Under the pieces are notes generated by a model. The model was not told the origin of the DNA, searched no databases, and saw only the letters and a list, made by a program, of their open reading frames with translations. 26,401 nucleotides of DNA, taken from UHGV virus genome UHGV-1485618; one strand, 5' to 3'. The position numbers and the translations under genes were made by a program. Positions 8,356-10,156 of the stretch are shown here, piece after piece (position 1 is the first letter of the stretch; each line of letters opens with the position of its first letter). This stretch comes from a virus.

Positions 8356-8540
8356 ACGCCACAATTCAAACGATACCAGAGCTTCTTATCCAGACACGAG
8401 GCAATCAGACCGAAGTGGCAAGGATGCTTTCCTGCGCAAGAGGAACAGTGCTCAAGTACAACCGAGACAGTAAAGGCGAGCGTCACGTAATAGTTAACGG
8501 CGTCCTGATGGTCAAACAGGGAAAAAGGGGAAGGCCATGA
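8352..8540 (+). CDS. ninH: NinH-like small DNA-binding protein
   Basis: Motif GNQTEVARMLSCARGTVLKY...HVIVNGVLMV resembles lambda NinH. Confidence 0.8.
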   Translation: MNATIQTIPELLIQTRGNQTEVARMLSCARGTVLKYNRDSKGERHVIVNGVLMVKQGKRGRP

Positions 8541-9160
8541 GACTCGAAAGCGTAGCTAAATTTCATTCGCCAAAAAGCCCGATGATGAGCGACTCACCAC
8601 GGGCCACGGCTTCTGACTCTCTTTCCGGTACTGATGTGATGGCTGCTATGGGGATGGCACAATCACAGGCCGGATTCGGGATGGCTGCATTTTGCGGTAA
8701 GCACGAACTCAGCCAGAACGACAAACAAAAGGCTATCAACTATCTGATGCAATTTGCACACAAGGTATCGGGGAAATACCGTGGTGTGGCAAAGCTCGAA
8801 GGAAATACTAAGGCAAAGGTACTGCAAGTGCTCGCAACATTCGCTTATGCGGATTATTGCCGTAGTGCCGCGACGCCGGGGGCAAGATGCAGAGATTGCC
8901 ACGGTACAGGCCGTGCGGTTGATATAGCAAAAACAGAGCTGTGGGGGAGAGTTGTTGAGAAAGAATGCGGAAGATGCAAAGGTGTCGGCTATTCAAGGAT
9001 GCCAGCAAGCGCCGCATATCGCGCTGTGACGATGCTAATCCCAAACCTTACCCAACCCACCTGGTCACGCACTGTTAAGCCGCTGTATGACGCTCTGGTG
9101 GTGCAATGCCACAAAGAAGAGTCAATCGCAGACAACATTTTGAATGCGGTCACACGTTAA
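8537..9160 (+). CDS. Q: Late-gene antiterminator Q (lambda type)
   Basis: 207-aa translation MRLESVAKFHSPKSPMMSDSPRATASDSLSGTDV... matches lambda Q from memory; followed by pR'. Confidence 0.95.
   Translation: MRLESVAKFHSPKSPMMSDSPRATASDSLSGTDVMAAMGMAQSQAGFGMAAFCGKHELSQNDKQKAINYLMQFAHKVSGKYRGVAKLEGNTKAKVLQVLATFAYADYCRSAATPGARCRDCHGTGRAVDIAKTELWGRVVEKECGRCKGVGYSRMPASAAYRAVTMLIPNLTQPTWSRTVKPLYDALVVQCHKEESIADNILNAVTR
8824..8837 (-). promoter_or_regulatory. Possible paQ CII-binding site (TTGC-N6-TTGC) antisense within Q
   Basis: Plus strand GCAAGTGCTCGCAA, i.e. TTGCGAGCACTTGC on the minus strand. Confidence 0.45.
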
Positions 9161-9202
9161 CAGCATGATTGCCACGGATGGCAACATATTAACGGCATGA
9201 TA

Positions 9203-9231
9203 TTGACTTATTGAATAAAATTGGGTAAATT
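9203..9231 (+). promoter_or_regulatory. Late promoter pR' (-35 TTGACT, 17-bp spacer, -10 TAAATT), overlapping the qut region
   Basis: TTGACT at 9203-9208 and TAAATT at 9226-9231, directly downstream of Q. Confidence 0.85.
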
Positions 9232-9238
9232 TGACTCA

Positions 9239-9431
9239 ACGATGGGTTAATTCGCTCGTTGTGGTAGTGAGATGAAAAGAGGCGGCGCTTACTACCGATT
9301 CCGCCTAGTTGGTCACTTCGACGTATCGTCTGGAACTCCAACCATCGCAGGCTGAGAGGTCTGCAAAATGCAATCCCGAAACCGTTGTGCAGGCTCTAAC
9401 TATTACCTGCGAACTGTTTCGGGATTTTTTC
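9239..9431 (+). ncRNA. 6S-type short late transcript from pR' to tR' (about 194 nt)
   Basis: The distance from the predicted start to the end of the tR' T-run matches the lambda 6S RNA length. Confidence 0.7.
9373..9430 (+). terminator. tR' terminator (long hairpin plus T6)
   Basis: ATCCCGAAAC (9373-9382) pairs with GTTTCGGGAT (9416-9425); inner GCAGG/CCTGC stem; followed by TTTTTT. Confidence 0.8.
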
Positions 9432-9434
9432 TTT

Positions 9435-9509
9435 GGGTCAGTCGTATAAAGGTCATTACGGAAGGCTGTTAACCTTCTTATCGTGGTTCGAGTCCACGCT
9501 GTCCCGCCA
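9435..9509 (+). tRNA. tRNA-like gene, predicted anticodon GUU (Asn), CCA encoded; one mismatch in the acceptor stem
   Basis: Hand-folded cloverleaf: acceptor GGGTCAG/CTGTCCC (T-T mismatch at pair 4), D-loop with GG, anticodon stem GAAGG/CCTTC with loop CTGTTAA, T-arm CGTGG-TTCGAGT-CCACG, discriminator G, CCA. Confidence 0.5.
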
Positions 9510-9514
9510 AACAT

Positions 9515-9590
9515 GCTGGTTTAGCTCCAATGGTAGAGCAGTCGCCTTGTAAGCGAATGGGTAGCGGTTCAAGTCCGTTAACCAGCACCA
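9515..9590 (+). tRNA. tRNA-like gene, predicted anticodon UGU (Thr), CCA encoded
   Basis: Hand-folded cloverleaf: perfect 7-bp acceptor GCTGGTT/AACCAGC, D-arm GCTC-CAATGGTA-GAGC, anticodon loop CTTGTAA (stem has a G-A mismatch at 27-43), T-arm AGCGG-TTCAAGT-CCGTT, CCA. Confidence 0.55.
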
Positions 9591-9832
9591 TAACTGAGCC
9601 GTAGCCACTGGCTATCCTGAATTCATCAGTGATAGTTATGCTGCGGCCTTCTACACATGACCTTCGTGAAAGCGGGTGGCATGAGGTTGCGCTAACAACC
9701 TCCTGCCGTTTTGCCCGTGCATATCGGTCACGAACAAATCTGATTACTAAACACAGTAGCCTGGATTTGTTCTATCAGTAATCGACCTTATTCCTAATTA
9801 AATAGAGCAAATCCCCTTATTGGGGGTAAGAC

Positions 9833-10156
9833 ATGAAGATGCCAGAAAAACATGACCTGTTAGCCGCCATTCTCGCGGCAAAGGAACAAGGCATCGGGGC
9901 AATCCTTGCGTTTGCAATGGCGTACCTTCGCGGCAGATATAATGGCGGTGCGTTTACAAAAACAGTAATCGACGCAACGATGTGCGCCATTATCGCCTGG
10001 TTCATTCGTGACCTTCTCGACTTCGCAGGACTAAGTAGCAATCTCGCTTATATAACGAGCGTGTTCATCGGCTACATCGGTACTGACTCGATTGGTTCGC
10101 TTATCAAACGCTTCGCTGCTAAAAAAGCCGGAGTAGAAGATGGTGGAAATCAATAA
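9833..10156 (+). CDS. S: Holin S (lambda type, dual-start Met1-Lys2-Met3)
   Basis: Translation [34 protein letters not shown]... matches lambda S from memory. Confidence 0.95.

Follow-up and report, generated by a model that had tools for sequence, protein, structure and literature searches.

The OLD nuclease of phage P2 is the effector in classical P2-lambda interference, and it kills by cleaving the host tRNA-Thr(UGU) within the anticodon stem (Govande et al., NAR 2025, gkaf874). Phage tRNA-Thr(UGU) genes rescue by standing in for the cut host tRNA, and the UGU anticodon is required to replace thrU in the reading of ACA codons (Govande et al., gkaf874). The same study reported that tRNA-Thr21 of phage 21 ‘also protected against P2-OLD’ and resisted the purified enzyme, at site 1 almost completely, and that OLD also cuts the host tRNA-Asn(GUU), more slowly than thrU. 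In a 2026 preprint, Derzhaev et al. describe the tRNA-Thr(UGU) of phage HK446 as a strong counter-defence for OLD-sensitive phages. On its own, one tRNA-Thr(UGU) neither rescued lambda itself nor relieved the toxicity of OLD in recB-deficient cells. HK446 carries a protein inhibitor of OLD too, and the authors suggest that its tRNA may have another purpose (Derzhaev et al. preprint).

[quoted passage not shown] AriB cuts between positions 40 and 41, beside U36-A-A-U39, and the change U39A, made in tRNA-Lys, abolishes cleavage; the enzyme also reads features outside the anticodon arm. Rescue from PARIS needed tRNA-Lys(UUU), and the Lys, Thr and Asn tRNAs of T5 together neutralise the system. 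The sets of T5 and T4 hold nuclease-resistant copies of the isoacceptors targeted by PARIS AriB and P2 OLD, although they are large arrays (about 24 tRNAs in T5) of virulent phages, with their own promoters and sequences only distantly related to those described below. The T5 tRNA-Thr has a C31-G39 closing pair and G39 (UAAG), as does the tRNA-Thr of this work, and the T5 tRNA-Asn also has no U39.

Tandem tRNA-Asn and tRNA-Thr(UGU) genes are known from temperate enterobacterial phages. Phage P1 carries them in the same order as here, 2 nt apart, with C31-G39 in its tRNA-Thr. Unlike the present pair, that of P1 (1349–1502 of our record L009) lies downstream of the C1-controlled ban promoters, its tRNA-Thr is about 80% identical to ours, and its tRNA-Asn is more divergent and keeps a host-like UAAUCA. 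Stx-converting lambdoid phages have ileZ-argN-argO between Q/pR' and stx, usually explained by the supply of rare codons. This is likewise tRNA cargo in the same late-operon leader region, although with Ile and Arg anticodons and unrelated sequences. Among lambdoid phages, the SfI genome paper described tandem Asn(GUU) and Thr(UGU) genes downstream of Q and listed one or both tRNAs at the same position in Sf6, ST64T, PS3 and phage 21, citing a 1991 paper on the late region of phage 21. For Kapi1, its authors report two tRNAs and no more. The cassette studied here is therefore already described, widely annotated and, in its Thr member, functionally characterised; it is not new.

A tRNA-Asn/tRNA-Thr cassette between tR' and S

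The window analysed here, a 26.4-kb stretch of viral DNA, comes from a mosaic lambdoid phage that runs from immunity, replication and nin genes through a lambda-type Q and the lambda S-R-Rz genes to P22-like head and ejection genes. Kapi1, E212 and CUS-3 are its best overall matches. The features that bear on the cassette are as follows.

8537–9160, plus strand: Q, lambda-type late antiterminator of 207 aa (ORF list; matches lambda Q and the ‘antitermination protein’ of lambda, HK446 and Kapi1)
9203–9231, plus strand: late promoter pR', TTGACT-17-TAAATT (identical to lambda pR'; PR'-like in the HK446 annotation)
9372–9430, plus strand: intrinsic terminator tR', with an outer stem of 9372–9382 and 9416–9426 and a T-run at 9425–9430 (alignment to lambda)
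9431–9591, plus strand: tRNA cassette of 161 bp, standing for 165 bp of lambda, 44780–44944 (alignment, computed junctions)
9435–9509, plus strand: tRNA-Asn(GUU), 75 nt, encoded CCA, discriminator G73, anticodon stem GAAGG/CCUUC (ARAGORN and Rfam)
9510–9514, plus strand: 5-nt spacer AACAT between the tRNA genes
9515–9590, plus strand: tRNA-Thr(UGU), 76 nt, encoded CCA, G1-C72, C2-G71 and A73 (ARAGORN and Rfam)
9833–10156, plus strand: holin S, the first late gene downstream (ORF list; lambda-family holin in matching records)

The original prediction had folded two tRNA genes by hand at 9435–9590, with anticodons GUU and UGU, and had named ARAGORN as a check. ARAGORN called exactly two tRNA genes in the window, both on the plus strand, at the same coordinates and with the same anticodons. 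Both matched the Rfam tRNA model RF00005 over its full length (positions 1–71 of 71), the tRNA-Asn with 55.3 bits (E 1.4e-9) and the tRNA-Thr with 61.5 bits (E 2.9e-11). The gathering score is 29, and both values are far above chance. The predicted encoded CCA, canonical T-loops (TTCGAGT in Asn and TTCAAGT in Thr) and GG of the D-loop were seen in both genes. The two mismatches read by hand also stand: the acceptor stem of the tRNA-Asn has a U4.U69 mismatch, and in the anticodon stem of the tRNA-Thr (GUCGC/GCGAA) the top pair G27.A43 cannot form, leaving a stem of 4 bp. The ARAGORN cloverleaf of the tRNA-Asn has a further mismatch, U13.U22 in the D-stem, that the hand folding had missed. In E. 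coli the identity elements for AsnRS are G34, U35, U36 and G73, and those for ThrRS are G1-C72, C2-G71, G35 and U36. All of them are present in the respective cassette tRNA.

The sequence is lambda-like from Q through pR' and the 6S leader to the end of the tR' T-run at 9430, and homology to lambda is back at 9592 and continues into S. Alignment of the tR'-S interval thus confirms the proposal that cargo had precisely replaced lambda sequence, 161 bp for 165 bp between lambda-identical flanks. Lambda itself, as the original prediction stated, has no tRNA in this interval: in its 165-bp segment ARAGORN found none, and the only Rfam match at E ≤ 1 was a meaningless one to a snoRNA. That the lambda segment might be an eroded tRNA pair is ruled out by the same results.

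A promoter scan of 9100–9900 returned pR' as the sole sigma-70-like site and found no internal promoter for the cassette. Because pR' is the only promoter-like site upstream, late and Q-dependent expression is the natural reading of the cassette's position behind pR' and tR'. Once Q takes the pR' polymerase past tR', the tRNAs would be transcribed at the head of the late RNA, from which host enzymes would then excise them. A simple terminator scan missed tR', with its long loop, and is uninformative on terminators here. The 33-nt interior of the tR' hairpin (9383–9415) matches the reverse complement of the lambda interior at 32 of 33 positions; its outer stem and T-run are as in lambda. The lambda orientation is found in lambda, HK446, Kapi1 and all 11 classifiable lambda-type loci from IMG/VR. 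Since the flipped interior of the window recurs in the closest E. coli prophage (ETEC1730, L139), it is a variant of the lineage rather than an artefact of assembly. A 69-aa ORF on the minus strand (9305–9514) runs antisense across tR' and the tRNA-Asn and is probably spurious. A transcriptome paper on Kapi1 lysogens shows the tRNAs covered by a clear antisense signal and notes a comparable one in the Salmonella prophage BTP1.

The 156-bp pair is identical at 156 of 156 positions to that of phage 21 (AJ237660 4702–4857) and is also 100% identical to those of Salmonella phages S135 and P6; the pair of HK446 and Kapi1 matches at 155 of 156, the lone difference being at spacer position 9512. Near-identical copies occur in Escherichia, Salmonella and Shigella phages, with a form carrying compensatory variants in a Klebsiella phage. 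Among 5,426 complete E. coli genomes, 369 carry the cassette; both tRNAs are annotated there by PGAP, as they are in the records of Kapi1 and mEp506. Phage phiv205-1 carries the cassette too. Its record and those of HK446 (NC_019714, JQ086372) and phage 21 (AJ237660) have no tRNA annotation on it, which probably explains the statement by Derzhaev et al. that HK446 ‘encodes a single’ tRNA.

We scanned viral and genome collections with the exact 20-mer of the Asn D-arm and gathered 125 related loci. The left junction, TTTTTT(A/C)TTT followed by GGGTCAG, is shared by phage 21, L and Kapi1. At least 110 of the 125 loci have it, with the tRNA-Asn starting 4 nt past the terminator T-run, behind at least three unrelated upstream contexts (about 91 loci with a phage 21/L-type terminator, 15 with a lambda-type tR' and about 10 with a third context). 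The window, with its T-run ending at 9430, tRNA-Asn starting at 9435 and S starting at 9833, has the phage 21-type position. Phage 21 has the same 156 bases directly past its late terminator T-run and the same lambda-like sequence downstream, yet upstream it has its own Q21, promoter and short terminated leader RNA in place of the lambda-type Q, pR' and tR' of the window; in phage L, too, Q and terminator differ while the cassette starts at the same point. HK446 and Kapi1 share the lambda-type frame from Q, pR' and tR' to S, although not the flipped tR' interior. Kapi1 is in addition a P22-like podovirus with similar late genes. The virion modules of the carriers differ: HK446 is a siphovirus, SfI a myovirus, and Kapi1 and the window phage are podoviruses.

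Anticodon stems of the cassette tRNAs and the nucleases OLD and AriB

The tRNA-Thr of the window has the sequence of both phage 21 tRNA-Thr21 and the HK446 tRNA-Thr(UGU). The suggestion that the pair might counter host defences that target tRNAs has thus been borne out experimentally for this exact tRNA-Thr, in its plasmid-borne phage 21 and HK446 form. Compared with host thrU, the anticodon loop is identical and the stem differs at 8 of 10 positions. The host stem, ACUGA/UCAGU, places CUG and CAG in register at 28–30 and 40–42. The cassette stem has UCG and CGA there, with no CNG in register, and contains the published C28U/G42A change. The features of OLD resistance, namely the UGU anticodon, the lack of CNG in register and the shortened stem, are all present. 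Since the window tRNA-Thr is the published resistant sequence, the G27.A43 mismatch is one of two published determinants of OLD resistance and not a sign of decay.

The tRNA-Asn may extend this pattern. The host asnT stem has CGG and CCG at 28–30 and 40–42, so that CNG stands on both strands, and the cassette tRNA-Asn has AAG and CUU, neither of which is the motif. CNG is found on both strands (CAG/CUG) in 7 of the 18 distinct Asn variants from the related loci, mostly of the Klebsiella type. At positions 36–41 the cassette tRNA-Thr reads UAAGCG where host thrU reads UAAUCA, and the cassette tRNA-Asn reads UAACCU where host asnT reads UAAUCC; U39 and the recognition context of AriB are thus lost in both. 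Our literature search brought up no published test of these tRNAs against AriB, and from these positions we may reasonably infer, rather than report as a result, that the tRNA-Asn resists OLD and AriB. Outside the anticodon arm, its conserved U4.U69 mismatch could be another element of resistance.

We think it likely that the cassette is a late-expressed pair of nuclease-resistant replacement tRNAs, with codon supply as an added benefit. Its main job would be to replace host tRNAs destroyed by abortive-infection nucleases of the Toprim family. The tRNA-Thr, with the anticodon loop and ThrRS identity elements of the host tRNA, no CNG in register and a stem one pair shorter, would survive and sustain ACA decoding; the tRNA-Asn would do likewise for host tRNA-Asn(GUU), which OLD cuts more slowly and PARIS AriB attacks as a secondary target. 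For the window, expression, processing, charging and resistance would follow by extension from identical sequences carried on plasmids. More tentatively, we propose that the cassette is a countermeasure in two parts, rather than one anti-OLD tRNA accompanied by a passenger; this we put forward as possible and somewhat short of probable. The tRNA-Asn(GUU), overlooked in both OLD studies, would then in its own right resist Toprim tRNases of the OLD/PARIS family and take the place of a host tRNA that they cut. In that case the joint occurrence of Asn(GUU) and Thr(UGU) genes, in P1 as well as among lambdoid phages, would have an explanation.

The protection would be partial at best because a lone tRNA-Thr(UGU) failed in recB-deficient cells and for lambda, and because ARAGORN found no tRNA-Lys(UUU) in the 26.4-kb window. 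The recombination region of the phage, which bears on the triggering of OLD, falls outside the window. We also considered HepS of Gifsy-1, which cuts Thr isoacceptors (GGU most, then UGU and CGU) together with Ile and Ser tRNAs and is triggered by siphovirus J proteins. We set it aside as the relevant nuclease, as it has no specific link to the cassette and the window virion is P22-like; for siphovirus carriers it is possible.

For genome annotation the pair is a routine and correctly recognisable feature, and its value lies in its context, as a compact natural case of a temperate phage with what would be nuclease-proof copies of the tRNAs that P2-, P4- and prophage-borne nucleases destroy. 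It also illustrates that a stem ‘mismatch’ in a phage tRNA can be a functional feature and not damage.

Covariation, codon usage and alternative explanations

The original prediction had left room for decaying copies, since both genes contain stem mismatches. From the 125 loci we obtained 18 different sequences of the tRNA-Asn and 21 of the tRNA-Thr, in which the Asn D-arm is invariant by construction, having served for selection. Among the 18 Asn variants six pairs are changed on both sides and 90.2% of cells are paired, and among the 21 Thr variants four pairs are changed on both sides and 94.6% of cells are paired. The observed covariation score was reached by none of 500 shuffles, and when the pairing partner was slid by 1–3 columns as a control only 21–53% of cells were paired. 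The Thr G27.A43 is unpaired in all 21 variants, while the Thr acceptor stem compensates at three pairs. The Asn U4.U69 is unpaired in 16 of 18 variants, across three acceptor-stem haplotypes. Both tRNA genes are thus real and under selection and are not decaying, and the hedge falls away: the mismatches are conserved while neighbouring pairs compensate, and the G-A in the tRNA-Thr belongs to the published mechanism of resistance.

That the genes are remnants of captured tRNAs that no longer work, with mismatches as marks of erosion, we hold to be extremely improbable. The U.U in the Asn acceptor stem, U13.U22 in its D-stem and the G.A in the Thr anticodon stem are what erosion might look like, yet mismatches do not accumulate but are kept through the three haplotypes, the six Asn and four Thr pairs show compensatory changes, the Rfam bit scores are about twice the threshold, the identity elements and CCA are intact, and the cassette is nearly identical in phages of three host genera. 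For the tRNA-Thr the idea is refuted by rescue experiments, in which the identical tRNA, expressed from a plasmid, decodes ACA in vivo. A different proposal, that a prophage expresses the tRNAs to make good the damage that integration does to a host tRNA gene, or to change host translation in the lysogen, is very unlikely. The lambda pR' is not controlled by the repressor, and some read-through of tR' is therefore conceivable in a lysogen. The authors of the OLD preprint suggested a role of this kind for HK446. Against it, the position of the cassette, in the late operon and past a terminator, is the wrong one for a lysogenic conversion gene. Kapi1 has the same cassette, yet its integration site is argW, a gene for neither Asn nor Thr(UGU), and its prophage is flanked by a duplicated 17 bp of the tRNA 3' end. 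The virulent phages T5 and T4, moreover, carry an OLD-rescuing tRNA-Thr(UGU), and the closing pair of the T5 gene is that of the window.

The suggestion that the tRNAs support late translation is compatible with the codon counts: ACA occurs 16.2 times per 1000 codons in the window late genes (28% of Thr codons), about twice the host level, compared with 8.1 in lambda late genes (12%) and 6.9–8.6 in a 50-kb sample of the E. coli chromosome (14–16%). The figures in the SfI paper, 17.3 vs 7.1, show the same bias. ACA is a rare host codon, and it is read only by the single-copy thrU; Asn codons are modestly enriched as well (48.5 per 1000 vs 36–41). Taken alone, more decoding of ACA and AAC/AAU in the late burst, with no part in defence, nevertheless seems unlikely to account for the cassette. 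The homologous late genes of P22, which has no tRNA genes, tolerate 13.0 ACA and 52 Asn codons per 1000, and the early genes of lambda and of the window phage are equally rich in ACA. Supply would not call for a stem unlike that of the host at 8 of 10 positions around an identical loop, nor for an invariant G27.A43, and in published work over-expression of host thrU failed against OLD toxicity whereas the phage tRNA-Thr succeeded. Because P22 is nearly as rich in ACA without tRNA genes, we take codon supply to be a real but secondary benefit, and one compatible with nuclease-resistant replacement: the high use of ACA makes the loss of thrU especially damaging for such phages, and the same tRNA-Thr would provide both resistance and extra ACA decoding.

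Variant cargo in related loci

Several related loci carry other cargo in the same position. In about nine of them (L018 from E. albertii, L027, L050, L095, L097, L106, L114, L115 and L127) the tRNA-Asn is followed by a chimeric tRNA-like element and a tRNA-Gly(UCC). The chimera joins the 5' half of the phage tRNA-Thr to a 3' part like that of host thrU, has an anticodon stem of three pairs (ACUGA/UCAUC) and is not called by ARAGORN. In locus L125 the chimera has an intact, host-like anticodon arm and is likewise followed by a tRNA-Gly(UCC). The Gly(UCC) isoacceptor is another reported target of OLD (Derzhaev et al. preprint). Klebsiella phage ST16-OXA48phi5.2 (L006) and several IMG/VR loci have Asn, Phe(GAA), Thr and Arg(UCU) genes in the slot after Q, sometimes with Gly(UCC) in addition, and the Asn and Thr copies in these longer arrays carry compensatory stem changes. 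If the cassette is indeed a two-part countermeasure, lambdoid phages would have, just past the late terminator, a slot that generally receives tRNA cargo directed against tRNases, and this cargo would include Gly(UCC), Arg(UCU), Phe(GAA) and the chimeric thrU-like variants.

Salmonella phage L (L005 581–652) and phages of the ST64T type have a second gene of 72 nt with a Thr-like acceptor (G1-C72, C2-G71, A73) and a rearranged anticodon arm. The record of phage L labels it ‘tRNA-Leu (TAA)’, and the identical element of locus L107 received no ARAGORN call. In two E. coli prophages, H36 (NZ_OZ040950) and H37 (NZ_CP196291), an HNH endonuclease gene lies beside the tRNA pair in the interval between Q and the holin gene; T5 similarly has HNH genes interspersed with its tRNA genes. 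The exact Asn D-arm 20-mer also occurs on short contigs of two metagenome-assembled genomes, labelled Segatella copri (L015) and Collinsella sp. (L019), which are most likely misbinned enterobacterial phage contigs.
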